Below are positions 16,959 to 34,711 of a stretch of 52,316 nt of DNA, one piece after another. Position numbers and translations under genes: made by a program. Each line of letters opens with the position of its first letter. Position 1 is the first letter of the stretch. The notes under the pieces are model-generated. The model had not been told where the DNA came from. It did not search any database and saw nothing but the letters and a program-made list of their open reading frames with translations. The DNA comes from a virus (Duplodnaviria; Caudoviricetes): the IMG/VR virus record IMGVR_UViG_3300032278_000012, positions 1 to 52,316 of that record; one strand, given 5' to 3'.

Positions 16959-18041
16959 TTATCCACCCTTCTTTGTTGCTGGATAATTGTTTTCGGGTCG
17001 TACATAGTCAGGTGAAACTTCTGATGGTTTTTTGATATATTTCTCAGATTTATGAGGTCTCTTCACTTCGTCAAATGTGAAGTTATTGATATACTTTGCC
17101 ACCTCTTCTGAGTCCATTCCTTCATAAACATTAAGAAGCCAGTCTGCCATTCTCTTCTTCTCAGGTGATTCATCGTCAGTATCATAACGATTCCGTCTTC
17201 CATCAAAATCTAACACTGTTCTAGGTTCTGCATTTATTCCTGCTTTGTTATCCCATGTCATCTCATAGGTTGCATCAGGCATCTCTCTGACCTTACCTAA
17301 GTCATTAATGAAATGAAGAAAGACATGATAACTATACTCACCTAATAAATAATCTCTCCAATGTGCAATGTTCGGGCCTTGGTAAACGAAGATGTCGCCT
17401 GGCTCTAAATCAAAACGAACTGAACCTGCCTCTACTCTATCCCTATTTTTTAATGCTTGGGTTTCTTCATACAATGTCTCTTGGTCTTTTCGTTTTAGTA
17501 TCCAATTCTCAGTTGAGTTGCCCCATAGTGTCCATGGAGTGTTATCATCTGTCTTATAATCCAAACAGAGAGTGACACTTATTTCACATGATGGTCTATC
17601 TGAATGTGCTTTGAGATATGCACCTCGATAATATTTTCTTGTATAAGAATAGGTCTCTCTTAATTTGAGATTGAGATAATCTCTTAGTTTATTTCTGACA
17701 TAGTGGTGAAGTGCAACTGCTGGTGGGAAACAGTAGGCACCGTGTGATTTTTCTAATGAACTTTGAGGAGATTCTTGAATGATGTCTACTTCTCTGTCAC
17801 CAAAGTATAATTTTTGTTGATCAGGATTATTCTCAATGACTTTCCATGCATCCAAAGTCATCGTGATAATCTCTTTAGGGATAAAATCTTTTAGAACAAT
17901 ATATCTATCGTTAACAAAATCTAGTGTGGTTTGATCAGTGAATCCAGTGTAAGGAGTCTCCTTATCTGAATGTTCATCATGAACCTTTTCTTTTATTCTC
18001 TTGTCATATCGCGCAAGTTTCGCACTCGTCACCGTCATCAT
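16959..18041 (-). CDS. 2OG-Fe(II) oxygenase-like protein between nrdA and nrdB
   Basis: YSYTRKY..GAYLKAHSDRPSCEISVTL...GD...YQG...HWRD...HVFLH. Confidence 0.8.
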   Translation of the reverse strand: MMTVTSAKLARYDKRIKEKVHDEHSDKETPYTGFTDQTTLDFVNDRYIVLKDFIPKEIITMTLDAWKVIENNPDQQKLYFGDREVDIIQESPQSSLEKSHGAYCFPPAVALHHYVRNKLRDYLNLKLRETYSYTRKYYRGAYLKAHSDRPSCEISVTLCLDYKTDDNTPWTLWGNSTENWILKRKDQETLYEETQALKNRDRVEAGSVRFDLEPGDIFVYQGPNIAHWRDYLLGEYSYHVFLHFINDLGKVREMPDATYEMTWDNKAGINAEPRTVLDFDGRRNRYDTDDESPEKKRMADWLLNVYEGMDSEEVAKYINNFTFDEVKRPHKSEKYIKKPSEVSPDYVRPENNYPATKKGG

Positions 18042-21628: not shown

Positions 21629-22390
21629 TTAAAAATGTTCCTCAGATCGTTTTGTTAGAACTTCACAACTATTTTGGGTTACTACAAGAGTATGTTCCCA
21701 TTGTGCAGAATTCTTTCCATCTACTGTTTCTACTGTCCAATCGTCTGATAAAACTTTAGTGTCATAAGTTCCTGCGTTGATCATAGGTTCAATGGTGAGA
21801 CACATACCTTTTCTCAACTGGAATCCTGTTCCACGTTCTCCGTAATGTAAGACCTTTGGAAAGTCATGATAAATCTCTCCAATCCCATGCCCACCGTAAT
21901 TTCTAACAACTGAATATCCATTTTCCTCTGCATGTTGTTGAATTGCATTGCCTATGTCACCCAAATATGCACCGTCTCTTACTTCTTTTATTCCTTTATA
22001 AAGACACTCTTGAGTAACTCTTACCAACCTATCCTCGTTTGGTTGAGTGTTACCCACTAAAAACATCTTAGAAGTGTCACCGTGAAAACCATCTTTCTTT
22101 ACAGTGACATCAATGTTTAGAATATCACCATGTTTTAATGTCTGATTATAGATAGGAATACCATGACAGACAACATGATTTACACTGGAACAGATTGTTT
22201 TTTCAAAACCTGTGTATCCAAGATTAGCAGGAACTGCACCTTGTTTACGAACTATGTAATTATAACACATGTAATCAAGTTCACCAGTTGATATGCCTGG
22301 CAAGACTTCATCAGTTATCATGTCCAAGACTTCTGCCGCAAGTCTCCCTGCGATTCTCATCTTCTCTATATCAGCGGGTGATTTTATCAT
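21629..22390 (-). CDS. map: Methionine aminopeptidase type I
   Basis: SVNHVVCHGIP, NIDVTV, HGDTS, GHGIG..YH, TIEPMIN, AQWEHT. Confidence 0.95.
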   Translation of the reverse strand: MIKSPADIEKMRIAGRLAAEVLDMITDEVLPGISTGELDYMCYNYIVRKQGAVPANLGYTGFEKTICSSVNHVVCHGIPIYNQTLKHGDILNIDVTVKKDGFHGDTSKMFLVGNTQPNEDRLVRVTQECLYKGIKEVRDGAYLGDIGNAIQQHAEENGYSVVRNYGGHGIGEIYHDFPKVLHYGERGTGFQLRKGMCLTIEPMINAGTYDTKVLSDDWTVETVDGKNSAQWEHTLVVTQNSCEVLTKRSEEHF

Positions 22391-23567
22391 TGACCTTCGG
22401 AAGTTTGTCTTTTGGAATCTGTAGAACGTATCTGTTCTCAACCACTGGTGGTGGTTTATGATATTGACCTTGAGGTCTTGCAATTAATCCTGTTGAAGTA
22501 ATCAAAAGTAACACAGCCAATGGGTCAAACACGAAAATGATTGCATAAATGACCGCTCTAACTGCATTGTCAAGGTACTTGACAGACTCTTCTTCTCCAT
22601 AAATCACCTCTGCAAGATACTTAATCGGGCCTATTTCCTTCTCAAATCCAAGTATTTCCTGTTCATGAACAAATCTTTCATCTCTTAACTCTGATATTAT
22701 AACATAAATGTCATCAATCTCCGAGTTGATTTCGTCAGTTTTTCCAATTACCTCATTTTGTCCTGAATTATTTAAAGTTTGAAGTCGCTGTATTTCGGTG
22801 TTTGAAGTGTTTATAGTGTCTTGTGCCTGTTGTCTGTAGGTGTCAATGGTTGTCTGTAATTTATCTATTTGTGCATTTGCATCCAGTTGGAGTTTATCTC
22901 TCTGAGGTTGTTGATCCTTTCTTACTTGAATACCTAGTGCAACATTATCCGTGATCTCTCTATTGAATGCACTTCCTGATGTGACTGTTCCCTGTTCTGT
23001 ATAACTCTTGACAATCTCATCTAGTGCATCTATGTCTTCTTTAAGTCTTCCACGGATATCATCTATCTGTCCCTGTGCATAATCTATATCACCTTGAACC
23101 CTGTCCCATGCACCATCTCTTATTGTTTCCTGTGCATTAACACTGTCTGTTATGTCAAATTGACCCCTACCAAGTGTATCAAGTCTTGTGGTAAGGGTCT
23201 TAATTTTGTTTTCTTGTCTTAGGATTTGAGTGTTGTATCGATCAACTTCTGCTTGTGATGATGCAGTTGCATAAGAAGTGTCTGAAGATGCTTTTGCAAG
23301 GTATCCAAAAATACCCAATGAGGTGATCAACATGAGAATAATGACTGCCCCAACCATGAAATATTTTTGGTAGTTGAGTCTGTCCCAAACTATGTGTAGG
23401 TATGCAGCGGTGACAAGTTTACCAAATTCCAATACACCTGTCATGATCACAATTCCTAACCATGCACCAGCAAAAATGGTTGCAAGACCAAGGACTGAGA
23501 AATATGCAGCGATAGATGCAATTGAGATTGCACTGAACAAAGCAAGGTAGTTCAAAAATTTAATCAT
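22371..23567 (-). CDS. Membrane protein with long coiled coil
   Basis: 3 N-terminal TM helices (LEFGKL, TSLGIFGYL), ~230 aa coiled coil, C-terminal TM (IIFVFDPLAV). Confidence 0.75.
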   Translation of the reverse strand: MIKFLNYLALFSAISIASIAAYFSVLGLATIFAGAWLGIVIMTGVLEFGKLVTAAYLHIVWDRLNYQKYFMVGAVIILMLITSLGIFGYLAKASSDTSYATASSQAEVDRYNTQILRQENKIKTLTTRLDTLGRGQFDITDSVNAQETIRDGAWDRVQGDIDYAQGQIDDIRGRLKEDIDALDEIVKSYTEQGTVTSGSAFNREITDNVALGIQVRKDQQPQRDKLQLDANAQIDKLQTTIDTYRQQAQDTINTSNTEIQRLQTLNNSGQNEVIGKTDEINSEIDDIYVIISELRDERFVHEQEILGFEKEIGPIKYLAEVIYGEEESVKYLDNAVRAVIYAIIFVFDPLAVLLLITSTGLIARPQGQYHKPPPVVENRYVLQIPKDKLPKVNDKITR

Positions 23568-23576
23568 AATGTAAGG

Positions 23577-23741
23577 TTACTTCTTTTCTAAGGCAGCTCT
23601 TTTCCAAATCTCATATTGTTTCTTTTTCTTTTTCTTTCTTACTATGGGTTGATCTGTGGACACAGCAACCCCTGTTGCATTAATAGGTGCATCTTCTTCT
23701 ATGGATTCGTTAAATTGCTTGAATGTTTTAATATAAGTCAT
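23577..23741 (-). CDS. Small protein with capsid-targeting-like N-terminus (54 aa, not in ORF track)
   Basis: MTYIKTFKQFNESIEEDAPINATG...RKKKKKKQYEIWKR. Confidence 0.7.
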   Translation of the reverse strand: MTYIKTFKQFNESIEEDAPINATGVAVSTDQPIVRKKKKKKQYEIWKRAALEKK

Positions 23742-24321
23742 CTGCTGTTACCAATACTCTGTCACCTTGAATGAAACCGACATATAAATTTATACCGTAA
23801 ATTGCACTATGTTCTGCTACCACATCAATCTCTTCTTTCAGTGGATATATTCTCGCATTTTGTTCTAAAGGTCTCCTTAATCTATACTTAATACCTGTTC
23901 CAACTGTAGTCAATTCATTGATCTCTACCAGTTGTTGTGTAGTAAGCATGTCATTATCCCTTAGATAATTATAAAATCTTTCACATAATTCATTTGCTTG
24001 TTCTTCATCCAGTTCACACTCTTCCTTCAATAGTGCAAGTGCAACTGCGTATGATGCAAATACGGTTTTCCCAAATGGGACTTTACTTATTATCCTCTTG
24101 AGATTAAAAACTAACCTTGTTAAAGGTGTTATTGTTGCCTTCTCTTCTTTTGTTGACGGATCATTAGGAATCCATTGTTGTTTATTGTCGGGATGTCTTT
24201 TCGACTTAATTCTTGCTCCCTTTTTATCAATAAACCCCATCTTATATGCAGGCATATCTTCCCACTTAGTGGTCAACATTTTAAGAATACGAAATACAAT
24301 TAATGTGTCTATAACTCTCAT
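23728..24321 (-). CDS. Conserved T4-like hypothetical (probable virion) protein
   Basis: FRILKMLT..W....AYK.G.ID..G...RLVFNLKR pattern recalled from marine T4-like phages; late promoter 5 nt upstream. Confidence 0.65.
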   Translation of the reverse strand: MRVIDTLIVFRILKMLTTKWEDMPAYKMGFIDKKGARIKSKRHPDNKQQWIPNDPSTKEEKATITPLTRLVFNLKRIISKVPFGKTVFASYAVALALLKEECELDEEQANELCERFYNYLRDNDMLTTQQLVEINELTTVGTGIKYRLRRPLEQNARIYPLKEEIDVVAEHSAIYGINLYVGFIQGDRVLVTADDLY

Positions 24322-24345
24322 ATATCTATTTATGCATTAAGAATG

Positions 24346-24422
24346 TGGAGCTGGTGGTCAGATTCGAACTGACGACCTGAGGTTTACAAAACCCCTGCTC
24401 TGGCCAACTGAGCTACACCAGC
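24346..24422 (-). tRNA. tRNA-Thr(UGU)
   Basis: GCTGGTGTAGCTCAGTTGGCCAGAGCA-GGGGT-TTTGTAA-ACCTC-AGGTC-GTCAGTTCGAATCTGAC-CACCAGCTCCA. Confidence 0.95.
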
Positions 24423-24794
24423 TTAGAGGTCTCGGAGTCTTTGTGTAAGTTCATCATCTAAGGGAATGTCTGTTTTCCACCCCTCTTCAACATATCCTAA
24501 GAAAAGGAACATAGTTTTGAGAGATGACCAATAGTTATCCTCTTTGATTTTGAATTCTAACATCCTCATGCATGGATCGAATCCAAATACATTGAAGAGT
24601 GTTATTAAATGATTTAACATGAGACGTTCTCTCAGTTCACCATTTTCATGGTATCTGTGGAGAAGTCGTTTGAGGTATCTGAATCTACGAACATCCTCTT
24701 GGAAGTCCTGAATGTCGATACATTGAGGGTCATCATAGTAACTTAAGGCAAAAGCCTGAAAGTTCTTGACTGTGAGTTTTTCAAAATCACTCAT
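24423..24794 (-). CDS. Conserved T4-like hypothetical protein
   Basis: YDDPQC...F.ED..RF.Y.KRL...RL.LNH...NVFG pattern. Confidence 0.7.
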   Translation of the reverse strand: MSDFEKLTVKNFQAFALSYYDDPQCIDIQDFQEDVRRFRYLKRLLHRYHENGELRERLMLNHLITLFNVFGFDPCMRMLEFKIKEDNYWSSLKTMFLFLGYVEEGWKTDIPLDDELTQRLRDL

Positions 24795-24826
24795 AATATA
24801 ATGATATTTAGTTGTTTAAGTTTGAC

Positions 24827-25237
24827 TTAAACTAGAGAACCGTAGACTTTATAACTACCTGTATCTAACTTTTCGTATCTGACTGAGAGATTAACTATTC
24901 TCTCTTCGACTTCAATCTCATCATGAGGTGTGTCTACTGTCTTACCGAAAATATCACCATATCTTTTGAATGGGATTTCAATTGCACCGTTTTCACCGAT
25001 TTCAACATCATCCATTGCACCTTCCACCATTGCAAGTCCAAGTAATGAAAGTTTTGCTTCCATTTGATTGAACGCTGCTTCGGGATTCAAGTATTCCAAT
25101 GTTGCTGTTGCACCGAGAATTGCATTAATTTTTTGAACGACAGCAGGGTCATCTATATCGTGTGGGATATGTTCAGAGGATAATGCCGCACTTGGATATA
25201 TCCCTGCTTCTTCTGTAAATTGTTTAAATCTTTTCAT
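24827..25237 (-). CDS. Putative internal head protein
   Basis: Starts MKRFKQFTEE, resembling the T4 capsid targeting sequence. Confidence 0.6.
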   Translation of the reverse strand: MKRFKQFTEEAGIYPSAALSSEHIPHDIDDPAVVQKINAILGATATLEYLNPEAAFNQMEAKLSLLGLAMVEGAMDDVEIGENGAIEIPFKRYGDIFGKTVDTPHDEIEVEERIVNLSVRYEKLDTGSYKVYGSLV

Positions 25238-25299
25238 ATTTTTCCTTAAGCTATATGTGACCTATAGAACTCCATATACATGTAGTTCCTAATCATATA

Positions 25300-25878
25300 T
25301 TATGCTACTACTGTAATTGTTCCAGCAAGTGTTCCGATACCAGCTACGGAAGTAATGGTTGCATTACCACCACCAACTGTATCTACTATTGTTGAACCAC
25401 CAGCGTGAGCTACAGCATTTGCACCAACACTCAATACATCATCTGCATTAGTAGCTGCGTTTGCTGCTGCTATTACAAGATTAAATGTAAGTTGGTTAGT
25501 TGTTGAACCTGATGCGTATACTAATACATGTGGCCCTCTACCTGAACCTGAACCTTCGTTTCCGTTGGTTACAGATAAAGTAGGTGAACCTGTTACAGTT
25601 ACCGCTTCGTTATAACTTACTGTTGCAGATAGTGTTCCACCAGCAGATTTGTCAAATGCTGTTGATACCCAATCTATTGCAGTAATGTCTGCTTGTCCAA
25701 TATCTGTTGCAAGACCTGTATTACTTCCAACTGCGACTAAAAGTTCCTCTAGAGTTCTTGCCCCTACAGTTTTTCTTAGCACCCAACCGGCTGCGCTTGC
25801 AAAAGTGTTTGATTTATCTGTTGCTGATAACCATTTAGGTTTTGCTTCGTCAGCGTCTGATACTCCCCATAATGCCAT
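25300..25878 (-). CDS. Virion structural/decoration protein with Ig-like C-terminal domain
   Basis: MALWG...GWV...ELLVA N-terminus; Ala/Gly/Thr/Ser-rich VSYNEAVTVTGSPTL...YASGSTTNQLTF. Confidence 0.65.
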   Translation of the reverse strand: MALWGVSDADEAKPKWLSATDKSNTFASAAGWVLRKTVGARTLEELLVAVGSNTGLATDIGQADITAIDWVSTAFDKSAGGTLSATVSYNEAVTVTGSPTLSVTNGNEGSGSGRGPHVLVYASGSTTNQLTFNLVIAAANAATNADDVLSVGANAVAHAGGSTIVDTVGGGNATITSVAGIGTLAGTITVVA

Positions 25879-25892
25879 TTGTTTATCCTCTC

Positions 25893-26435
25893 TTATGCTA
25901 CTCTTAGAATAGCGTTAAACGTCTTTTTAAAGGATTTTTGATCCTTTCTTAAAAGTCTTAAGTATTTAGACCTCGGTGATGGTTTAAGAGTCAATAAAGC
26001 ATCTTTTACTTTTACTGCATCTTTCCATTTAACCTTGGTTTTCTTCATATCATCTGTCCTAACATCGGTATCTCGTTTAGTGTCTTCCATACCTTTTAGT
26101 TGCATTAATACGTCTGCATCAGGTCTGAGTTGCATTCCTTTTGCACCTTTTGAATCCATTGCATCCATTGCTGTCTGCACTACGTCATCATCTCCTGCTT
26201 CGGAATACTTCCCACCTGCCATCTTAGAGATTTTCTCTAATTTGGACTTAAGTTCTTTTTCATTCTTGCTCTGTGCAACTGCACGAGCAACTTTCTTATT
26301 GCCTGCATCGGACATCATGCCGAAGTCTGCAATAACTTCCATCACGTTATTGACCTTTTTAGCCTGATCTTTAATGTATCCGAGTTTTGCTATTTTCTCT
26401 TTAAAGATACGGTATCTTGCATCAAGTCTATCCAT
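25893..26435 (-). CDS. Lys-rich mosaic protein (putative internal head protein)
   Basis: N-terminal DAR...FKEK..KLGY module shared with 27689-29770. Confidence 0.6.
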   Translation of the reverse strand: MDRLDARYRIFKEKIAKLGYIKDQAKKVNNVMEVIADFGMMSDAGNKKVARAVAQSKNEKELKSKLEKISKMAGGKYSEAGDDDVVQTAMDAMDSKGAKGMQLRPDADVLMQLKGMEDTKRDTDVRTDDMKKTKVKWKDAVKVKDALLTLKPSPRSKYLRLLRKDQKSFKKTFNAILRVA

Positions 26436-26440
26436 GATGA

Positions 26441-26752
26441 CTAATCCGACTCGTTATCGCCTTTCCAGTTCTTGTCAACGTAGTCGTAAAATTCTTTTTC
26501 TTTGTCCCCTTTTAATTCGGCTGGAGACTTAACACCAAATTTCTTTAGTGCAGATTGAAAAAACTTCTGATATTCGGCTTTGTCACCAGTAACTTCTTTG
26601 ACTGGTGCATCTTTAACTGTTGTTCCACTTCCTTTTCTGCCGTCTTTTTCAGCAACTCTTCGTCTTGAACCGTCTGCCTTAATCCACTCAGTTGCAAGTC
26701 TTTCTTTAACTGCGTCAATTAGACCTTTTGGTAAACTTTTTATATCGTTCAT
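26441..26752 (-). CDS. Hypothetical protein (putative head-associated)
   Basis: C-terminal EYQKFFQSALKKFGVKSPAEL...FYDYVDKNWK domain. Confidence 0.6.
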   Translation of the reverse strand: MNDIKSLPKGLIDAVKERLATEWIKADGSRRRVAEKDGRKGSGTTVKDAPVKEVTGDKAEYQKFFQSALKKFGVKSPAELKGDKEKEFYDYVDKNWKGDNESD

Positions 26753-27339
26753 TGTTTTAATTCCCCTTTTTCAAAATAATTGAAAAGTTGTTCTTTACCC
26801 TGTTCATTAAGTTGCAACTGTTTTGACAGACGACCTAACATGTTTCTTTCCATGAGTTTTTCAACCGTTTTTTCAAGATTGTGTGGTTTTTCTTCCACTT
26901 CTTCTGCAATAAACCCTGTTCCATCGCAGTTTGGACACGTTTCTTGTCCTGATTCAGAGACTTCTACTGTTTCAGTAGGTTTTTCTACTTGTTCCCCATC
27001 GATTTCTTTCAAAAGTAATTCGATTTCTTCGGTAACTGAGGGCTCTTTTACACTTTCATCCATATCATCTAACAAACCATCAATAACTTGATCTGCATGA
27101 TCAGGATCATCAGTCTTAATTAAACCATGATCATAGGCATGTCTCAATAATGCCATCTGTAAAGGACTTCTATCTTTAGGGAAACTTCCTTTTAGTTTGG
27201 CAAGTTCTCTCTTATATTTCTTTTTAATTTGATCGAGAGACATTGACTTTCCTTCGTCAATTGCCACCGTTGCAACTTCTTGCACATGTTCACGAACTTG
27301 TTTAAGTTTATCGTGCCAGTTTTCTGATTTATAACTCAT
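26749..27339 (-). CDS. Mosaic Glu/Lys-rich protein
   Basis: Late promoter TATAAATA 5 nt before the ATG; internal CPNCDGTG motif. Confidence 0.65.
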   Translation of the reverse strand: MSYKSENWHDKLKQVREHVQEVATVAIDEGKSMSLDQIKKKYKRELAKLKGSFPKDRSPLQMALLRHAYDHGLIKTDDPDHADQVIDGLLDDMDESVKEPSVTEEIELLLKEIDGEQVEKPTETVEVSESGQETCPNCDGTGFIAEEVEEKPHNLEKTVEKLMERNMLGRLSKQLQLNEQGKEQLFNYFEKGELKQ

Positions 27340-27347
27340 AGTCTTAT

Positions 27348-27671
27348 TTATAATATTGTTTTCTTTAGATACGGATGATAATGTTCTTCTATCCTTATCA
27401 CTAAATCATCAACACCCTTTTGTAATTGACATTTTCCTTGTTTGGGAAGATGATAATCTATTCCCACTTTAAACTCTATAGATGGTCTATCTTCCACTAA
27501 AAATTTCCATCCGTTTCCTTGTAAAATATGTATAGTTCTTGATCTAGTGTCTGAACGATACCACGTTAGGTCTCGTTGATCTATATTCTTTGAAAAGGTT
27601 CTGATACGATATTCTCGTCCAGTCCCATGTTTCTCTTGAACTGTCTCAGTGTATGGTAACACGTTTGCCAT
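27348..27671 (-). CDS. Cupin-like protein, degenerate metal site
   Basis: IRTF...LTWYRSD...IHILQGNGWKF; AGGAG RBS before MANVLPY. Confidence 0.55.
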   Translation of the reverse strand: MANVLPYTETVQEKHGTGREYRIRTFSKNIDQRDLTWYRSDTRSRTIHILQGNGWKFLVEDRPSIEFKVGIDYHLPKQGKCQLQKGVDDLVIRIEEHYHPYLKKTIL

Positions 27672-27688
27672 CACTGTCTTACTCCTAT

Positions 27689-29770
27689 TTACTTGTATAA
27701 ATGTCCGCCGTGGTAATTTCGAGGATACTTTGCAACAAAATCTATGTATCGTTGATCTGTAATATTTCCTCTTGCACCTTTGGCAGCCTGTTTCCAACCT
27801 GCGGGTTTGAATATGTCACCGTTTGCAATGTCTATGAATGCATGAATAGAACCTGCCTTACCCATTTCCCATGTTTCAACACGGTAAAATTTCTGTGCTT
27901 TTCTTGCCTTGATCTCGGTCTTTCTTTCTTTGTGCATCTTTGCAAACTCACCACTGTTTAACTGTTTGTTAATTGCATCTTCATACTTTTTAACACCATC
28001 TTCGACTGAATGATCACCTTGTATCTGACCTGCTTGAGTTGATGGTAATACTGGTGCTTCATTAATACTTTCATTTCTTATGTCAACTTCGTTTCGACCT
28101 ATTCTTAATTTTGTCAGTATCTTTTCTACTTCTGAACCACCCCAAACTGGGTGGATATTAGAAATTATGATAGCATCATCACTGTCTTGCATAACTTTTG
28201 CACCTTTACCAAGTTTGTTTTGTGCCTTTTTTAATGCCTTGAGTAGGTTTGACATATGTTTTGAGTCTATGTCCATTATGGTCACATCACCCTGTCTTTC
28301 TGCAAGAATCCTTTCGAATAGTGAAGGATTTGAAGCTAAATATTCTTGATCTTCTTTTCTAAGTTTTACTAGTTTTTGTGAATCGTATTTGAATCGAGAG
28401 ATTAAATTAGACGCTGCAAGTAAGGAAATGAAATTAATATCTGCCTTGTATAGTGCAACCAATTCGTCTTCGGGTCTACCCCTCATCATTGCTAAGAGTT
28501 TCTTACCTGTTGAAGATGTTGGATCAACACCTTTAAGACCAGCATATGCTGATTTTAATTTCTTTATCTGTGGTTCTGAAAATCCTTCTATTATCTGTTC
28601 AAAGGTAACTTCTTCATTTGCATATTGAAGTGCTTTCTTCACATCTTTATGATTAGAGAGACCTCTTTTAAGTTTCTCAATCTTTTTAACTGCATATGTC
28701 ATTGCACCACTATGATCAAGTGCAATTGTTGCTGCTTTTCTGACCATCTTATCTTTGACTGGATTTTTTCTAAAGTATGAACTGATCTCTTGTCCAGTAA
28801 GTATAGAACCATCCATTCTTCCCATTTTTTCTTGGAATTCTTCGAATGATGGTTTATCGTATTCAACACTTTCTTTCATTGTTGCATCGATGTCTGCTTT
28901 ACTGTAACCAAGATTCATTAATTTTTCTTTGAATGCTTTAGTTCTTCCATCGACACCTTTCTTTTCTTTCATTCCATATCCCCAATCCTTCAACCAATTT
29001 TCTATTGGGTCTTTCTCTTCACCCATGGCTATATCTATTGAAGAACCTTTAAGTTTCTTCCACTCGGCAGCCCATTGTTTAACTTGTTTGAGATCAACAC
29101 CGTATTTCTTTGCAATCTTGTTTACATTCAAACCGTCTTCAATGTCTGCAGCGATCTTTGAGAAATAACCTTCATCAAAATCCACTTCTTCTAGGTCTTC
29201 TGACTGAACGAATGCATTTTTCCTTTTCTTTAAATCTTTATCATCCTTTCGATCATCACCATCTGCACAATTCTCACCGTCTTCTTTCTGAACTTCTGCA
29301 TTGATCATACTTCCCCAACTCTTACTCTTGTTCGGGCCGTAGGTGTTTAACCATTTAGTAATTACACCCCTTGCATCTTTGTTAGATGGTAGAGCTGCAA
29401 TATCATCTGCTAAACCATCATCATCAACATAAGGAGAGATTGCTTGTTGTGCATCTTTTGCTTTAAGAGGTTTTTGTAATAATTTCTTTAATGCCTTTTG
29501 TTGTTGTTTGGTCTTAGGAACTGTCATTGTTCCTTCTTCTAGAGGTTTTTCTGTGACTGTGATTTCTTCGTTATAAGGATAACCTTTAAGAGGATTTGAA
29601 AATACTTGTGAGAATTGTTTCCGAGTTTTTTTCTTTTGTTCGTGGAAAAACTTTTCTCTTTCTTTTATAAAAGACATAACAGTTTGGCCAGGCGTATCTG
29701 CTTGATATGCAGTCCTAGTTTCATCAGTTCCCTGTTCGTGAACTCCGTTATCTGTGTAATTACCTGACAT
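27689..29770 (-). CDS. 693 aa multi-module protein (putative internal-head polyprotein)
   Basis: Series of ~40-90 aa modules joined by Glu-rich linkers (PLEE, LEEVDFDE, ESVE, ANEE, IIE, ILAE, ESINE); C-terminal SIHAFID...GDIFKPAGWK..AK domain. Confidence 0.65.
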   Translation of the reverse strand: MSGNYTDNGVHEQGTDETRTAYQADTPGQTVMSFIKEREKFFHEQKKKTRKQFSQVFSNPLKGYPYNEEITVTEKPLEEGTMTVPKTKQQQKALKKLLQKPLKAKDAQQAISPYVDDDGLADDIAALPSNKDARGVITKWLNTYGPNKSKSWGSMINAEVQKEDGENCADGDDRKDDKDLKKRKNAFVQSEDLEEVDFDEGYFSKIAADIEDGLNVNKIAKKYGVDLKQVKQWAAEWKKLKGSSIDIAMGEEKDPIENWLKDWGYGMKEKKGVDGRTKAFKEKLMNLGYSKADIDATMKESVEYDKPSFEEFQEKMGRMDGSILTGQEISSYFRKNPVKDKMVRKAATIALDHSGAMTYAVKKIEKLKRGLSNHKDVKKALQYANEEVTFEQIIEGFSEPQIKKLKSAYAGLKGVDPTSSTGKKLLAMMRGRPEDELVALYKADINFISLLAASNLISRFKYDSQKLVKLRKEDQEYLASNPSLFERILAERQGDVTIMDIDSKHMSNLLKALKKAQNKLGKGAKVMQDSDDAIIISNIHPVWGGSEVEKILTKLRIGRNEVDIRNESINEAPVLPSTQAGQIQGDHSVEDGVKKYEDAINKQLNSGEFAKMHKERKTEIKARKAQKFYRVETWEMGKAGSIHAFIDIANGDIFKPAGWKQAAKGARGNITDQRYIDFVAKYPRNYHGGHLYK

Positions 29771-29785
29771 AATTTCCTCTCTTAT

Positions 29786-31255
29786 CTATTTATTTGCATT
29801 AAAAGCAGCGATTGCCATTGACCTAACTTTTTTTGCAGATTTACCTTTGAATTGTGGTGCATCTGATTTACTAAAATCACTGATGTAATCACCTACAGTT
29901 GCATTTGCATCTAATTCTTCTGTTACTTTAAGACCTAATTTCTTTTGATATCTGTTAATCTGTTTTAGTAAAGTCTTCTTCTCACCCTTATTCTTTGTGT
30001 TAAGATACTTTTGCATGAGATCAATCATTGCATCACCATCAACACCTTCTGAATGTGTGTGCATACCCTTCTTCTTGTGGTGTTCATTTGCAGTTCGAAG
30101 TGCAGCTAATACCCTTGAATCATCTGATAATCCTTTCTTCAATTTCTCTATTGCTTTGACTGCACCAGTATAATTTCCTTGAAAATATTTTGGAGACTTG
30201 ATAAGTTTGATTGCCTTGTTCACTAATGAACGTGAGAATGATTCTTGAATGGATTCTGCTTTATAACCCTTTTTAAGTAAGTCTTTCTTAAACTTTTCAA
30301 GTGATGGTTTGTTTTTGAATATTTCCATATCAAAGAAATCACTGCCATCTTTATGTTTCTTTTTACCATCGTGATAACTTATAGTATATTTTGCCTTACC
30401 AACATTGTCTGTTTGACGAAATGTTTTTTTACCTTCTGAAAAAGATTCTCCATATCCTATTGCATCTTTTTCCTTATTCTTTGGTATTGAATCCCAATAC
30501 TTATCTCTTGAAGATGGTAATTTTCTAATGGAATTATATAATTTGTTTAAATTAACTGGTGGTTTTAATTTCTTTTTCGTATCACCAAATGCTACCATAA
30601 GTGGATCGGGGCCATGGACATAATCTTTTTTAAAGAGTTTAATTGCATGTTTTGGTGCATGAATTCTAAGATAAGCTTGAACTAATTTATCTGCTTTTTT
30701 CCAGTCTGATTCTTTACCAAACCTAATCTCGAAATCATCAATCATTTCTTCTTGAAGATTTGCTTCAAATAAAGCACCTATATCACCACCACTTACATAA
30801 TCAGGTAACATTTTGTTTAAATCAAAAGCTGAAATCTTATGGATTTTTGCAACTTTTTTTGCAAAAGCACCCATTGTCTTACTCTTCATCATCTTCTTTG
30901 CAATATCTTTACCTTTTGCTTGTTTCTTGGAGAATGCTTCGTTTGTTTCTCTTGACGATTGATTTGCTTCTCTTTCTTTTTCTGTATCGTCATTATCTTT
31001 CTGTCTTTCGTTCTCTCTTTCGTGACGTGTTTTAAGTGCCTCTTTTTCTCTTTCGTGTTTATTTGCAAGGTCATCTATTTCCCCTGCTTGGTCTACTTTA
31101 AGTCTTGCAGCGTCTTCTGCATCTTCCATGAAGACATTAAAAGTTTTTGTGTGGGGATAATTAGGAGTTTTTATAGGATATCGTTGCAAAACTTGATCTA
31201 TATCATCGTCTTGAATTTTCCTAATTCTATCTATAATCTTGAATAGTGTTGTCAT
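29786..31255 (-). CDS. 489 aa multi-module protein (putative internal-head polyprotein)
   Basis: Modules separated by ETNE, LFEANLQEE, ESFSE, ESIQES, VTEE; one module shared with the 693 aa protein; late promoter. Confidence 0.65.
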   Translation of the reverse strand: MTTLFKIIDRIRKIQDDDIDQVLQRYPIKTPNYPHTKTFNVFMEDAEDAARLKVDQAGEIDDLANKHEREKEALKTRHERENERQKDNDDTEKEREANQSSRETNEAFSKKQAKGKDIAKKMMKSKTMGAFAKKVAKIHKISAFDLNKMLPDYVSGGDIGALFEANLQEEMIDDFEIRFGKESDWKKADKLVQAYLRIHAPKHAIKLFKKDYVHGPDPLMVAFGDTKKKLKPPVNLNKLYNSIRKLPSSRDKYWDSIPKNKEKDAIGYGESFSEGKKTFRQTDNVGKAKYTISYHDGKKKHKDGSDFFDMEIFKNKPSLEKFKKDLLKKGYKAESIQESFSRSLVNKAIKLIKSPKYFQGNYTGAVKAIEKLKKGLSDDSRVLAALRTANEHHKKKGMHTHSEGVDGDAMIDLMQKYLNTKNKGEKKTLLKQINRYQKKLGLKVTEELDANATVGDYISDFSKSDAPQFKGKSAKKVRSMAIAAFNANK

Positions 31256-31263
31256 AATACTAT

Positions 31264-32586
31264 TTATCCTTTTGCTTTCTTCATTAATTCATGTTCTTTC
31301 CAATGAAGTGCATTCTTAGTAGAAGGGAATCTAGAAGTCCATGACAACATTTGACCGTAGAGTTTGTTTGCCTTTTTCTTCAATGCATCCAACGTATCAT
31401 CATTCTTTACTTCAATAAAATCATTACCAAACATTCTCAGGTAATCTTGACCGTGTTTTTGTGCATTCATCCAATCCTTTTCAACTATCGCAGGTGGAAG
31501 TTTTCTTGACCGTGCTAAATTTCTATCCTGTGCATTTGCAAGTGAAGTGTTTACATAGATCATCTTGTATTCATATCCAAGTGTATCTAATAATGCTTTG
31601 TATGCCTGTATTTTAGTTTTCTTTGCACTAGTAGTGTCAAAGATTAATCCGAGTCTTCCTTGGATATATCCATTCAAACCTTTTGCAACGAGTTCCTTTG
31701 CTCTTCCACGAAGTTGATCCCTGACCTTGGGATCAATTGTTCTTAAATCCAATGAAATTGAATTTTTCTTTAATGCCTTTTCAAATGCAGTGTCAGTGTT
31801 TACCAGTTTAAGACCAAGTGCTTTGAGGGACAGTGCATTCACTATAGTGGATTTACCACTGCCGGGGCCACCCATGAGGAACACTGCCTTAAAGATACCC
31901 TGATCATATACCCCTTCCTTAATCAAGTCTTCTAAGATGTAGGTTGGTAGAGTTGACTCTGTAATCCCCATACCTTTTCTGACTGCCTTATAGAGTGTCT
32001 CTGCATCTTTCTTGTTTTTCGATGGAACACCCTTTTTAAATTCTTCGAAATCACCCTTATCTGCAAACATTCTTAGTTTTGATGCACTCATACCTGACAC
32101 GTCATCTGAGTCGGGGTCTCTTTCCCCTGCTGAAATGATTTCAATCGATTTAAAATCGTAGTGTCCGTGTCTTCCGTATTTTCCGTTGTATGTTCGGATG
32201 AGTTGATCAAATTCTCGAACCCTATCTGACCCTACAACAAGTCTTATACTAGTGTATCCCTGTTCATACAAGAATGCAAGACAATCAAATATCGTTCTCG
32301 CAGGAGTGTCTATTACTTTAACCTTCTTAAAGAACTTCCTAAGAAACTTTATCTTAACTTTGTGGGTTAGTGGATTTTTTCTTGCATCCACGGAATGAGT
32401 TGGAAACAACATAACGTGAAATCCACCCTTAGATGCTTTGTTTAATTTATCAACAAGTTTTCCATGTCCTATGGTAGGTGGATTGAAACGACCAAAAGTG
32501 AACACTACACCCTTGTCTTTCTTTGCTTCGTTTATAAACGATTCAAATGTTTTAACTGGTGATATTTCTGATGGTTTTATTTCCAT
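31264..32586 (-). CDS. HIGH-family nucleotidyltransferase (cytidyltransferase-like) fused to a P-loop kinase
   Basis: FGRFNPPTIGH, VVGSDR, SAGERDPD, MSASKLR; then AVFLMGGPGSGKST...IFDTT...RN..RSR. Confidence 0.85.
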   Translation of the reverse strand: MEIKPSEISPVKTFESFINEAKKDKGVVFTFGRFNPPTIGHGKLVDKLNKASKGGFHVMLFPTHSVDARKNPLTHKVKIKFLRKFFKKVKVIDTPARTIFDCLAFLYEQGYTSIRLVVGSDRVREFDQLIRTYNGKYGRHGHYDFKSIEIISAGERDPDSDDVSGMSASKLRMFADKGDFEEFKKGVPSKNKKDAETLYKAVRKGMGITESTLPTYILEDLIKEGVYDQGIFKAVFLMGGPGSGKSTIVNALSLKALGLKLVNTDTAFEKALKKNSISLDLRTIDPKVRDQLRGRAKELVAKGLNGYIQGRLGLIFDTTSAKKTKIQAYKALLDTLGYEYKMIYVNTSLANAQDRNLARSRKLPPAIVEKDWMNAQKHGQDYLRMFGNDFIEVKNDDTLDALKKKANKLYGQMLSWTSRFPSTKNALHWKEHELMKKAKG

Positions 32587-32723
32587 TACATCCATTCCTC
32601 AAACATGTCTTTTCCTACTCCACAATCGGGACATTCCCAATCGTCAGGAAGGTCTTTAAAAAGGATGTCTTCTTCCCATTCATTATACTCATGGGCACAG
32701 ACGATGCATTTGTAAATATGCAT
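32586..32723 (-). CDS. Rubredoxin (45 aa, not in ORF track)
   Basis: [13 protein letters not shown]...[20 protein letters not shown]: canonical CxxC...LPDDWxCPxCG. Confidence 0.9.
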
Positions 32724-33095
32724 TTACGCATCCTTCTTCTTCTTAGTCTTCATCATCTCTTTTGCTCTTACTTTAGGAATCATTTTCTTTGCAATTCTTT
32801 GGATAGCAGACTTCTTCTTCTCTAATCTTTTTTCTAGTTCTTTCTTTGCACCCATAGACAAATCTGATTTACTTCTACCCTTAAGAATCTTCCTGATTAA
32901 AAGATTTCTTGCAGCCTTATTTGCTTTCTTTGCAACCTTTTTAGGATTCAGAATAGGTTTCTTCATTGCCTTCTTTCTTTTGAAAAGAATCTTTGCTTTG
33001 TTCCTTCTGAACGCAGCGCGCATCTTCATACGAGTTTGCATAGATGCAACCTCTTCTATTCCTTCTTCTCCTATAAATTCTTTAAATGATTTCAT
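32724..33095 (-). CDS. Very basic protein with capsid-targeting-like N-terminus
   Basis: MKSFKEFIGEE followed by a Lys/Arg-rich body. Confidence 0.7.
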   Translation of the reverse strand: MKSFKEFIGEEGIEEVASMQTRMKMRAAFRRNKAKILFKRKKAMKKPILNPKKVAKKANKAARNLLIRKILKGRSKSDLSMGAKKELEKRLEKKKSAIQRIAKKMIPKVRAKEMMKTKKKKDA

Positions 33096-33096
33096 C

Positions 33097-33501
33097 TTAA
33101 CCTTTTAATGGTGCTAGTTTGTTCTTCTTTCTCAATACATTTAACTGTTTGACAACCTTCTTGTATGCATCTGACCCTGCTGGTAAGTCCATTGCATTAC
33201 CAAACAATTTAGACATTTTTGCATCATCAGGTGTTCCCCAAAATTCTCTTAATCGTGGTTCTGTTCTATTATACTTTTGTGTAACAACAGATAAATTAGA
33301 CCTGTCATTATTCAAGGGATCATTATCCTTATGATGCACGTCCATTCCTTTAAGGTTCTTTCTATTCTTTAAGAGTCTTCGTGCTTCGTTTCTTTTAGAT
33401 CGTCTTGCAATCTGTTCGGGTCTAGAATGATAATTCTTATACTCTTTCTTGTAGTTCCGTTCTTCACCCCACATTCTAACAAATTCTTGAAATGAAAACA
33501 T
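33097..33501 (-). CDS. HNH-domain protein plus short C-terminal module
   Basis: DVHHKDNDPLNNDRSNL......NR; start MFSFQEF 1 nt after the upstream stop. Confidence 0.75.
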   Translation of the reverse strand: MFSFQEFVRMWGEERNYKKEYKNYHSRPEQIARRSKRNEARRLLKNRKNLKGMDVHHKDNDPLNNDRSNLSVVTQKYNRTEPRLREFWGTPDDAKMSKLFGNAMDLPAGSDAYKKVVKQLNVLRKKNKLAPLKG

Positions 33502-33502
33502 C

Positions 33503-34711
33503 TTACTTATCCCACTGTTTTGCAGCGGTGAAATTATTGAATGCAAATTCCATTCGATCAACCAATTTTACTGCCTTACCTTGTCGATCAATTGCAACAT
33601 AACCTTCGGGATTAACTGCTTCAAATCCCTTATCCGTTTTCTTGAATGTTCCTATTGACTTAACCCTATTCAATGCATTGATAATAAGTTGTTTTGACTT
33701 TACAAGGTATCCTTGAAACTTTGTTAAATTGATCAATAATTTTTTAAGACCTTTTAACTCGGACATTATCTGTTCACCAATCTCTACTTTAACATCAATG
33801 TTTTGTTGTTTCTTTAACTTACCAACTACCTTATCTCTCCAATACACTTCAACATGATTAAGATATCCTTCGGGAGTTGGGTTGTAGGTTCCACTTCTGA
33901 TAAGTGCATTATGATATGTCTTATAAGTTGCACCTGCGGCACCTTTACTAGTCATGGTTTTTTGGATTTTCATAAACTTACCTAAATCGTTCTTGGTGAT
34001 ACCATGAAATGATTTACCCACTACACTCAATGATTGTGTTAACGTAAGTGTTTCTTTTGCAGTCATGTTTCCAGTTCCACTAACATCTTTATAGGTTGCA
34101 TCATCAACCCAAATATCTTTAGAATGTCCTAAACCTTTAAGGTTTACACCAAATGATGCAGACAATCCATCGATTGTTGACCCCTTGTAAGTAGTGTGAA
34201 ATACTATACCAAATTTTGCATCTCGAATCTCAGAACCTAAGTCTGAATCTTCGTCCACTGCATAGAGAATAGTATTGGGTTGAAAGGTAATATAAGACTT
34301 ACCATCTATATTTTTTGTTTTCTTATCTCCACTGGTAAACATTAGATCACCTTGAAGAATATTTTTAAAAGATAATTTAGATAGATGTTTGAATGCTTCT
34401 AAGAATTTAGTTTCAAGATCACCACTTAATTCGGGTGCATCTTTGATTTGTTGTTCGGATGTATAGAACTTAGGGTCTTTAGTGAATAGAGATTTCTTTG
34501 CAACAAAGAACTGATTCGTTTCGGGATGTTTTCCAACAAAAAGAGCAGGAGCTCCGTCCCATTTAACAGTCATATTGACTTTAGACTTGGAGTTCCCCTT
34601 TAACATGTCTCGAAGGCCTCGTAGGAAGTTAACTGCACCCCTACCACCATCAATACCTTGATTGATGATTTCGTCTTCTAGATGTTCTAAATGTAAATTT
34701 TTTGCGCCCAT
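33503..34711 (-). CDS. DUF6267-like protein with ATP-dependent ligase-like motifs
   Basis: HLEHLED, VKWDGAP (motif I KxDG), QGDL, PEGYV, VKLVDR. Confidence 0.7.
   Translation of the reverse strand: MGAKNLHLEHLEDEIINQGIDGGRGAVNFLRGLRDMLKGNSKSKVNMTVKWDGAPALFVGKHPETNQFFVAKKSLFTKDPKFYTSEQQIKDAPELSGDLETKFLEAFKHLSKLSFKNILQGDLMFTSGDKKTKNIDGKSYITFQPNTILYAVDEDSDLGSEIRDAKFGIVFHTTYKGSTIDGLSASFGVNLKGLGHSKDIWVDDATYKDVSGTGNMTAKETLTLTQSLSVVGKSFHGITKNDLGKFMKIQKTMTSKGAAGATYKTYHNALIRSGTYNPTPEGYLNHVEVYWRDKVVGKLKKQQNIDVKVEIGEQIMSELKGLKKLLINLTKFQGYLVKSKQLIINALNRVKSIGTFKKTDKGFEAVNPEGYVAIDRQGKAVKLVDRMEFAFNNFTAAKQWDK

Follow-up and report, generated by a model that had tools for sequence, protein, structure and literature searches.

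Shuffled arrays of small modules with a conserved Glu-ending junction in a marine T4-like phage as candidate head-protease polyproteins

Introduction

Do the long modular open reading frames (ORFs) p693 and p489 of the virus record IMGVR_UViG_3300032278_000012 (IMG/VR) encode ordinary multidomain proteins, or polyproteins from which the prohead protease releases many small proteins for delivery into the host? The window analyzed here is this whole record (52,316 bases, completeness estimate 24%). It is a fragment of a marine T4-like myophage. The cultured phages closest to it in DNA sequence are Pelagibacter phage HTVC008M, Methylophilales phage Melnitz, and cyanomyophages. p693 and p489 lie between the gp41 helicase and gp61 primase genes. 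The genes of the array locus are all on the minus strand, and its neighbors encode ribonucleotide reductase, gp61-type primase, gp41-type helicase, UvsX, and DNA polymerase. An initial annotation had described five ORFs (693, 489, 196, 180, and 103 aa) at 25893-31255 as strings of basic modules joined by Glu-ending linkers, at which the head protease would excise small effectors. All five ORFs are present at those positions on the minus strand, and the modular system extends farther, from ~23577 to 34711. We gathered 31 related IMG/VR loci with p693, p489, and the conserved p180 as anchors; in 22 of them both flanking anchors are present, and eight whose signature had already been seen were left out. 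A DNA search of positions 25000-32000 against phage records gave the p192 gene as its sole match.

Modular architecture and shuffling of the arrays

A modular, shuffled architecture with a uniform junction is established for the arrays (Table 1). The modules are independent, as had been proposed, in the AlphaFold2 (AF2) models. The p693 model has a predicted template modeling score (pTM) of 0.31 and confident islands at residues 81-150, 201-240, 271-300, 331-380, and 590-650. The p489 model has a pTM of 0.27 and low predicted local distance difference test (pLDDT) values at 149-180, 199-273, and 397-404. Four of the five p693 junctions listed in the initial annotation fall within low-confidence segments or at their edges (63-80, 162-197, 491-501, and 554-583), as do the LQE/E, FSE/G, and HSE/G sites of p489. 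A Foldseek search of the PDB with the whole p693 model, a whole-array query being unsuited to it, found nothing under E 0.87. In Pfam, DUF7717 (PF24835) was recognized at p693 589-693 (E 1e-11; 45.5 bits, above the gathering cut-off of 27), and HTH_23, a helix-turn-helix (HTH) family, scored under the curated cut-off (E 0.0028). The module kinds of the locus are helix-turn-helix, HNH_3, DUF7717, DUF6321-like, very basic segments, and two enzyme domains; by type, there are two DNA-binding or nuclease modules, one very basic module, and two enzyme domains. The description of the modules as basic is only partly correct: K+R makes up 14-24% of the residues and D+E 15-22%, and p196 is net acidic.

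Modules recur within the locus. The likeness of p693 355-386 to p489 360-391 is clear (19/32 identical, E 2e-5). That of p693 273-291 (module M4) to p180 4-22 is weak alone (10/19, E 0.003), and the same N-terminal motif opens the p180 family in the relatives. A third recurrence claimed earlier, between KQINRYQKKLGL and KQLNVLRKKNKL, did not hold (6/13 identical, E 2.5); KQLNVLRKKNKL lies at 33115-33150, outside 25893-31255, in the tail of the HNH_3 ORF.

Among the 22 loci, 14 distinct ORF-length signatures were found within syntenic flanks (p402, p443, the variable stretch, p180, p192, p136, p123a, and p197). None of the related loci has an end-to-end match to p693, and p489 is roughly colinear only with an ORF of L004 (41% identity), which has an HNH_3 insertion. 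Stand-alone homologs and altered module orders, both expected by the initial annotation, are common. Residues 492-565 of p693 form an ORF of 89-92 aa in L006, L010, and L011, and its HTH module (199-240) is a 90-aa ORF elsewhere in L010 and L011. p693 1-72 ends a 202-aa ORF in L001 and starts a 104-aa ORF in L004. p489 115-163 is found in a p693-like 597-aa ORF of L001, and HNH_3, a separate ORF in the window, is in frame inside the p489 homologs of most relatives. Long arrays of 597-697 aa with differing module orders are present on independent contigs. Searches of shorter proteins returned 35 partial homologs for p693 and 224 for p489, many of them single modules, and homologs of the arrays carry HNH_3, DUF3008, DUF5824, and HTH_28. 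A phmmer search with p489 against 1.84 billion representatives returned 1612 clusters at E <= 1e-3, and most matches cover module N5 alone, at any position in proteins of 92-1101 aa. The initial annotation had named colinear full-length orthologs folding as one unit as the outcome that would speak against it; the relatives are non-colinear, and the models break into islands.

Three further proteins were seen. P-TIM68 AIR93496 (L046 7024-10044), an unannotated protein of 1006 aa encoded directly after the cytidylyltransferase gene, ends with the DUF6321 module of p489. S-SCSM2R_176 (L047 5938-8385; 815 aa), also unannotated and directly after the cytidylyltransferase gene, starts with MSSWEKFSSEIVE/G. 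Protein P0167, a metagenome representative of 534 aa, has N5 at 166 and again at 389, each behind ESV[NT]E/G, so arrays can hold repeated modules.

A conserved junction ahead of unrelated modules

The nine linkers listed in the initial annotation are all present, and the five of p693 (PLEE/G 76-80, FDE/G 198-201, IIE/G 393-396, ILAE/R 488-492, and SINE/A 568-572) lie in or beside zones where homology starts or stops. We tallied the residues ahead of each module in every distinct upstream context, which gave 99 contexts in 16 anchor-defined families. Hydrophobic-x-E[GA] occurs within 14 aa upstream (<=14 aa) in 54/99 contexts; its background frequency is 6.2% for the same set of proteins and 2.4% for control proteins. 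The contexts read [LI]xE/GT[MW][TA]VP before M2 (7/7), [VF]xE/G before the HTH module (6/6), hydrophobic-x-E/[GA] before M6 (3/3), LxE/R before M7 (3/3), and [LIV]xE/APV.PST before DUF7717 (7/7). The last site is ESINE/A in p693, which belongs to a widespread linker type, ES[VI]NE/[GA]; nine distinct linkers of this type occur in the related loci and none in 39 control proteins. The commonest linker is ESVNE/G/A.

Because these families had been picked by eye from conserved anchors, an unsupervised breakpoint test was run on 93 representative proteins, with 297 clusters of left-hand BLAST breakpoints. Hydrophobic-x-E/[GA] was found at 54 breakpoints versus 25.7 expected (p 1.7e-7; p-values of this test overstate independence because the proteins are related), and hydrophobic-x-E at 184 versus 94. 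Five decoys (e.g., D, K, or Q at P1, or a non-hydrophobic P3) stayed at expectation, and a sixth, E-x-hydrophobic/[GA], was weakly raised (15 versus 8.0, p 0.017). The junction codons vary between loci, so the constraint acts on the peptide.

Module N5 provided a larger, independent sample from metagenome proteins world-wide, comprising 124 newly returned representatives with 109 alignments that start in the first six residues of the module; later starts were excluded. Of these, 103 copies were internal; 102 of them have Glu at P1, all 103 have Gly at P1', and 96 have hydrophobic-x-E at the edge. The few N-terminal copies begin with MKTFKQIMTE/G, MNESVNE/G, MEKMLNE/G, or MEFESVKE/G, and one with M/G. 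The motif occurs 435 times in the 124 proteins versus 138.8 +/- 10.9 after shuffling. ESVNE alone occurs 153 times, ahead of many different downstream sequences, and one protein of 947 aa has seven such sites. The Glu-ending linkers thus form a conserved, module-independent junction of the type that ends T4 leaders, in line with the proposal of the initial annotation.

T4-type leaders on neighboring and stand-alone proteins

The prohead protease gp21 cleaves after (L/I)-x-E. Translated from the T4 record, the N-termini of the internal proteins (IPs) IPIII and IPII read MKTYQEFIAE/A, and that of IPI reads MKTFKEFTS...ITE/A. According to extracts of PMC9026906, the first ten residues of the T4 leader are enough for packaging, with positions 4 and 7 serving in targeting and positions 8 and 10 in processing by gp21, which cuts after Glu; replacing this Glu by Asp prevents the processing. 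The same extracts describe little in common among T-even internal proteins beyond the leader, their bodies not being conserved.

Leaders of this type were taken to be N-terminal stretches of 10-19 aa in which position 4 is aromatic, position 7 is hydrophobic, and the end is (I/L)-x-E. Sequences resembling MK-x-F-x-x-F-I/L-x-E/A are present on neighbors of the arrays, namely p123b (MKSFKEFIGE), p136 (MKRFKQFTEE, with T, not I/L, at position 8), and p443 (KTFESFINE/A). A strict pattern, defined after seeing the data, was found in 4/28 locus genes (window plus a close relative of 106 kb, G001) versus 1/183 outside (Fisher p 0.0012). The p443 family in the related loci has a leader in 17/17 distinct N-termini, mostly MK[QKT]F..[FW][LI]TE/[AG]K. 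The same type is found in P-TIM68, S-SCSM1, S-SCSM2R, P-SSM2, and S-RIM8, and one residue shorter in Melnitz; the HTVC008M homolog has no such leader. A GTG start at V14 of p443 was considered and rejected, its codon being GTT, so the p443 leader is not at the extreme N-terminus in this window.

The distant locus L013 (992-6840) encodes the same kinds of proteins as separate genes and looks like the unfused state of the system. Five successive ORFs there have T4-like starts: MAELLRFKDILE, MVSSFSKFLVE, MIKFSQYLSE, MKTLEQIRE, and MYKFKAFYE. Stand-alone forms of the p693 modules also keep the element at their N-termini: those of the HTH module begin with MTYIK[ST]FK...E/G, ORFs opening with M5 begin with MNLFQEAK..., and M7 ORFs (L006, L010, and L011) have leaders ending in ...WQELKE/R and ...WQQLKE/R. 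These leaders align with fused linkers (...WQELKE/R with SLFERILAE/R; MNLFQEAK with SFEEFQE/A). A reading of each linker as a complete targeting sequence was rejected, since the full strict T4 leader is not enriched inside the arrays (10 versus 10.8 in shuffled sequences); internal linkers keep just the hydrophobic-x-E end.

Stand-alone DUF7717 proteins were also seen in Syn9 (gp69, L038 1258-1731), starting MATFAEFCE, and in Klebsiella phage K14-2 (175,759-bp genome; L036 2537-2866), starting MNTFEILAE. N-termini resembling the leader thus occur outside marine phages as well.

Virion association, prohead protease, and expression

In the GenBank record of S-SCSM1, seven genes lying between those for the primase-helicase and the primase are labeled virion protein (_89, _90, _91, _92, _93, _95, and _97). 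The product of _91, a nicotinamide mononucleotide adenylyltransferase (NMNAT), has 40% identity to p443 (E 9e-45) and starts MKSFLQFLKE/A. The product of _92 is basic and has 520 aa; it shares a module with two ORFs of relatives, L024_6033_6833 in the variable stretch (E 3e-9) and L013_5929_6840 (E 4e-5), and the latter also has a p489 module. The 69-aa product of _93 is a module of the 815-aa S-SCSM2R array. A megablast search with the S-SCSM2R NMNAT gene did not recover S-SCSM1. Extracts of two proteome studies report the NMNAT-like enzyme in virions of S-SCSM1 and S-CREM2 and also cite S-CBWM1 and S-SZBM1 for it (PMC9602691, PMC10665884). T4-GC 190, to which the P-SSM2 cytidyltransferase belongs, is listed among the virion structural proteins determined by experiment (Sullivan et al. 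2010). The T4-type leader, as read from the sequences, would offer a packaging mechanism for this enzyme. A literature search for "capsid targeting sequence" together with "cyanophage" returned a T4 review alone, and the phrase "capsid targeting" is absent from the three cyanophage proteome papers.

A gp21-family prohead protease gene was not found in the window, which as a fragment is estimated at 24% completeness. In the relative G001, a Peptidase_S77 gene (E 1.3e-38) adjoins genes similar to those for gp22 and gp23. The gp23 homolog of G001 contains a single hydrophobic-x-E[AGS] in the whole protein, TLEE/A at 50-53, between a conserved propeptide helix and VRRAMPNL. T4 gp23 has 521 aa, and its mature chains in the PDB have 456 aa. 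The gp23 cleavage site of G001 is probably at TLEE/A.

The sequence ATAAATA is strongly biased to the gene strand, with 16 versus 4 occurrences in the window and 37 versus 6 in G001. It lies within 80 nt upstream (<=80 nt) of p402, p489, p693, p196, and p197, and likewise of the portal, gp22-like, and sheath-like genes of G001. This pattern is compatible with late expression and is no proof of it. ATAAATA stands exactly 5 nt before the start codon in p489 (31261-31267), p196 (27345-27351), and p197 (24327-24333), and the same spacing was seen for the portal gene and six others in G001. Five nucleotides leave too little room for an ordinary leader that includes a ribosome-binding site. The late messages may be leaderless, or the signal may be coupled to the stop codon upstream.

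Proposed pathway and alternative explanations

We propose that what the T-even phages have as hypervariable internal-protein loci is represented in this marine T4-like phage by the locus at ~23.6-34.7 kb, largely in the form of arrays. The small modules each stand behind a short leader that ends in hydrophobic-x-Glu and is followed by Gly or Ala. In some relatives a module is its own gene and the leader its N-terminus, often M-K-x-F-x-x-F-(I/L)-x-E; in this phage many modules are fused head to tail in p693 and p489, the leaders persisting as linkers. The proteins would be available when the head assembles and would enter the prohead core, where a gp21-type prohead protease may cut after each linker Glu. 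The freed modules of 40-120 aa and the enzymes would stay with the DNA and enter the host at infection. The packaging of p693 and p489, their cleavage, their injection, and an effector function of the modules are inferred. This account, in which the arrays are T4-type internal proteins in fused form and are processed by the head protease, has about an even chance in our judgment. The wider claim is held more tentatively, at somewhat less than even: that marine T4-like phages use polyproteins to encode a combinatorial library of mini-proteins, which the head protease releases and which are injected, with (E)S(V/I)NE/G/A and its variants as leader remnant, cleavage site, and exchange joint in one.

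Under the wider claim, a single gene would fill the capsid with many different effectors, and their combination would change through recombination. Cleavage of the arrays in the head would mean that tailed phages possess a polyprotein strategy like that of RNA viruses, used to pack many small proteins for delivery with the DNA. Such cleavage would explain the recurrent NMNAT-like enzymes in cyanophage virions, through the T4-type targeting leader, as well as the large unannotated proteins encoded beside them and the origin of many small orphan phage genes. Since one module alone occurs in 1612 protein clusters, such a system would be a major unrecognized arm of the phage-host conflict in the ocean. 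The leader/linker motif also provides an easily applied sequence criterion with which thousands of uncultured marine phages can be searched for candidate injected proteins.

Next in our ranking, and rather unlikely in our judgment, is that the arrays are uncut multidomain proteins acting in the cytoplasm, in DNA binding or host takeover, and encoded in a hyperplastic region, where the element would be a shared linker or helix cap handy for recombination. Many of the points that weigh against head-protease polyproteins suit this alternative. The locus lies among replication genes, its module types include the DNA-binding HTH_23 and HNH_3, and neither p693 nor p489 has a targeting leader at its own N-terminus, nor do p196, p103, and p180. 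Two p489 sites, TNE/A 104-107 and IQE/S 336-339, are inside confident predicted helices. Three families have essentially no junction (M1 0/11, M4 0/3, and HNH_3 1/12), and cleavage is so far only inferred. Further points against head-protease polyproteins are that the strict leader is not enriched inside the arrays, as described above, and that the stand-alone HNH_3 forms open directly with the module, with no leader. For N7, Glu-Gly is constant (15/15) and the hydrophobic P3 is present in only 8/14 contexts. [LI]xE is mildly over-represented in control proteins as well (139 versus 120), and the role of the conserved Glu-Gly may instead be that of a structural cap or of a joint for recombination. 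Against uncut proteins stands the retention of the element as an N-terminal leader in stand-alone modules, where a domain linker has no role. The identical element precedes unrelated modules, only Glu at P1 with a hydrophobic P3 is enriched at breakpoints, and the codons vary, hence a DNA-level joint is not what is conserved. Orthologous neighbors, moreover, occur in virions.

Other points weigh on the involvement of the head. The window, a fragment with an estimated completeness of 24%, contains no head genes, and the T4 late promoter TATAAATA is not enriched in it (6 versus 4.63 expected). p693 and p489 have no direct BLAST match to S-SCSM1 _92 or _93, the link running through ORFs of relatives. 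The proteome authors, in the extracts of PMC9602691 and PMC10665884, caution about abundant contaminants, and the S-SCSM2R proteome (23 proteins) does not name its NMNAT.

An improbable alternative, ranked third, is that the arrays are true polyproteins cut in the cytoplasm by another phage or host protease, as in RNA viruses, with no involvement of the head. The conserved module-independent junction points to processing, and the lack of N-terminal targeting leaders on the arrays and the distance of the locus from head genes are in keeping with it. No endopeptidase gene was seen in the locus, however, the sole nearby peptidase being an M24 member, and M24 enzymes are aminopeptidases. The motif also matches the ends of T4 leaders and the probable gp23 maturation site of the relative, and the neighboring genes are virion-associated. 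That the long ORFs are assembly chimeras or frameshift fusions of small genes, as the separate small ORFs for many modules elsewhere might suggest, is essentially excluded and was rejected, because arrays recur in independent contigs and in isolates (P-TIM68, 1006 aa; S-SCSM2R, 815 aa), with representatives of up to 1101 aa.

Comparison with known systems

In the leaders of T4 IPI, IPII, and IPIII, position 4 is aromatic, position 7 is hydrophobic, position 8 is I/L, and Glu at position 10 precedes Ala; the leaders of p123b, p136, and the p443 family resemble them. As at this locus, the payloads of T-even internal-protein loci are diverse and fast-changing, the leader alone being conserved (extracts of PMC9026906). 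A gp21-family protease, as in the T4 system, is encoded by the relative G001. Unlike in T4, many payloads here are joined in arrays that can hold eight or more modules, and what remains of the leader is an internal linker. The arrays themselves begin without a leader, the set includes enzyme domains, and the locus lies between the gp41 and gp61 genes. No homology to T4 internal-protein bodies turned up, although a direct comparison was not run.

Polyvalent proteins have 2-15 domains per polypeptide in variable architectures, as do the arrays. Extracts of Iyer et al. 2017 (PMC5512222) describe shuffled architectures, a proposed delivery with the DNA, and a suggested proteolytic release of domains, and define polyvalent proteins by known enzymatic or anti-restriction domains, often with a metallopeptidase domain of their own. 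In contrast, no MPTase peptidase, ART, ArdC, or DarB-like helicase/methylase was found in p693 or p489 with Pfam. The array modules are tiny and mostly of unknown family, they share one uniform junction suited to a head protease, and their gene context is helicase-primase rather than packaging/late or conjugation.

In the giant phages phiKZ, 201phi2-1, and SPN3US, the prohead protease cuts head-internal proteins behind a Glu in short motifs, sometimes at several sites per protein (extracts of PMC9026906 and PMC5694885). The cuts described there remove long propeptides from single mature proteins, and those extracts do not describe shuffling module arrays. We found no homology between the arrays and the inner-body or ejection proteins of giant phages.

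p443 is a member of the virion NMNAT group T4-GC 190, as judged from its identity to S-SCSM1 ORF91 (40%) and its place in the same locus. Unlike the cyanophage members, it is fused to a P-loop kinase, and its leader is displaced by 14 residues from the start.

Other features of the locus

Table 1 Coordinates of the arrays, their modules and junctions, and other genes of the locus
Feature	Residues	Nucleotides	Strand	Remarks
p693		27689..29770	-	693-aa array of about eight modules; limits from homology breakpoints
p693 modules, first half	M1 1-75; M2 80-165; M3 (helix-turn-helix) 201-252; M4 272-295
p693 modules, second half	M5 316-391; M6 396-464; M7 492-565; M8 (DUF7717) 572-693
p693 LEE/G before M2	E79/G80	29531..29542	-	Ends low-pLDDT segment 63-80
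p693 FDE/G before HTH module	E200/G201	29168..29179	-	After low-pLDDT segment 162-197
p693 FQE/K before M5	E314/K315	28826..28837	-	FQE/A and WQE/A in relatives
p693 IIE/G before M6	E395/G396	28583..28594	-	Between helices 389-392 and 398-409
p693 LAE/R before M7	E491/R492	28295..28306	-	Opens low-pLDDT segment 491-501
p693 (ES)INE/A before DUF7717	E571/A572	28055..28066	-	Inside low-pLDDT segment 554-583
p489		29786..31255	-	489-aa array; no Pfam family
p489 modules, first part	N1 1-40; long helix 38-123; N3 115-165
p489 modules, rest	N5 275-333; N6 334-391 (M5 paralog); N7 404-443; N8 (DUF6321-like) 444-489
p489 candidate junctions	LQE/E 167-170; FSE/G 272-275; HSE/G 401-404; VTE/E 444-447
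p489 FSE/G and module N5		30257..30442	-	N5 is the most widespread module
p443		31264..32595	-	Cytidylyltransferase (NMNAT-like) and P-loop kinase (Pfam, PHROGs)
p443 leader KTFESFINE/A	15-24	32524-32553	-	T4 type
p443 IKE/G	225-228	31912-31923	-	Between the two domains
p402		33503-34711	-	Full-length DUF6267 protein, E 1e-93
p154		33097..33561	-	HNH_3 module ORF, E 3.3e-7
p123b		32724..33095	-	Very basic (36% K+R); starts MKSFKEFIGE/EGIEE/V
p196		26749..27339	-	Conserved ends; optional middle module 30-95
p196 IDE/G	27-30	27250-27261	-	Before middle module; contexts [IL]xE/G 3/3
p103		26441..26752	-	Small modular ORF; C-terminal part matches phrog_28651
p180		25893..26435	-	Conserved colinear flanking gene, 56-71% identity in 17 loci
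p192		25300..25878	-	"S-layer domain" family (MALWG...)
p136		24827..25237	-	Starts MKRFKQFTEE/AG, leader of T4 capsid-targeting type
orf54		23577..23741	-	54 aa; leader MTYIKTFKQFNE and tail

Modules of p443, p123b, p196, and p103 are also found in other arrangements among the relatives. The kinase domain of the p443 family is preceded by hydrophobic-x-E/G in 6/6 contexts and is a separate ORF in HTVC008M (starting MIPFILKE/G) and in L013. p123b is a candidate internal-protein-like protein; its module is fused in L019, L021, and L023 after LDE/V, and hydrophobic-x-E precedes it in 6/6 contexts. The middle module of p196 is missing from homologs of 142 aa and 124 aa and lies inside the 597-aa ORF of L001, in which the p103 stretch 21-40 also recurs. 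Homologs of p136 open with MKKFSQFIEE and MTKSFKTFISE. orf54 is the shell of a stand-alone HTH-module gene, whose module is part of p693 in this phage. An S-SCSM1 gene with the same N-terminus and in the same place as p192 is annotated as a virion protein; this link consists of N-terminal likeness and synteny, BLAST giving no match.

p402 always adjoins the cytidylyltransferase gene. PHROG 455 joins p402-like and p443-like parts in one profile of 764 positions, so fused forms of the two probably exist. The HTVC008M homolog of p402 has KWDGA, which we take to be reminiscent of the nucleotidyl-transferase motif of ligases. A rubredoxin ORF of 45 aa (32586-32723, minus strand; E 4.6e-10) has a stop codon that overlaps the p443 start (ATGTAATG).

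All relatives and Melnitz keep an ORF of ~107 aa between p693 and p196 (27348-27671, minus strand). This ORF matches no family, lacks a junction motif, and lies outside the shuffling; a longer TTG-started frame overlaps the end of p693. A Peptidase_M24 protein of the methionine-aminopeptidase family is encoded near the array locus (21629-22483, minus strand; E 1.6e-48). Between the two ribonucleotide reductase genes, an ORF at 16959-18041 (minus strand) matches phage "ferrochelatase" PHROGs (E 2.9e-35).

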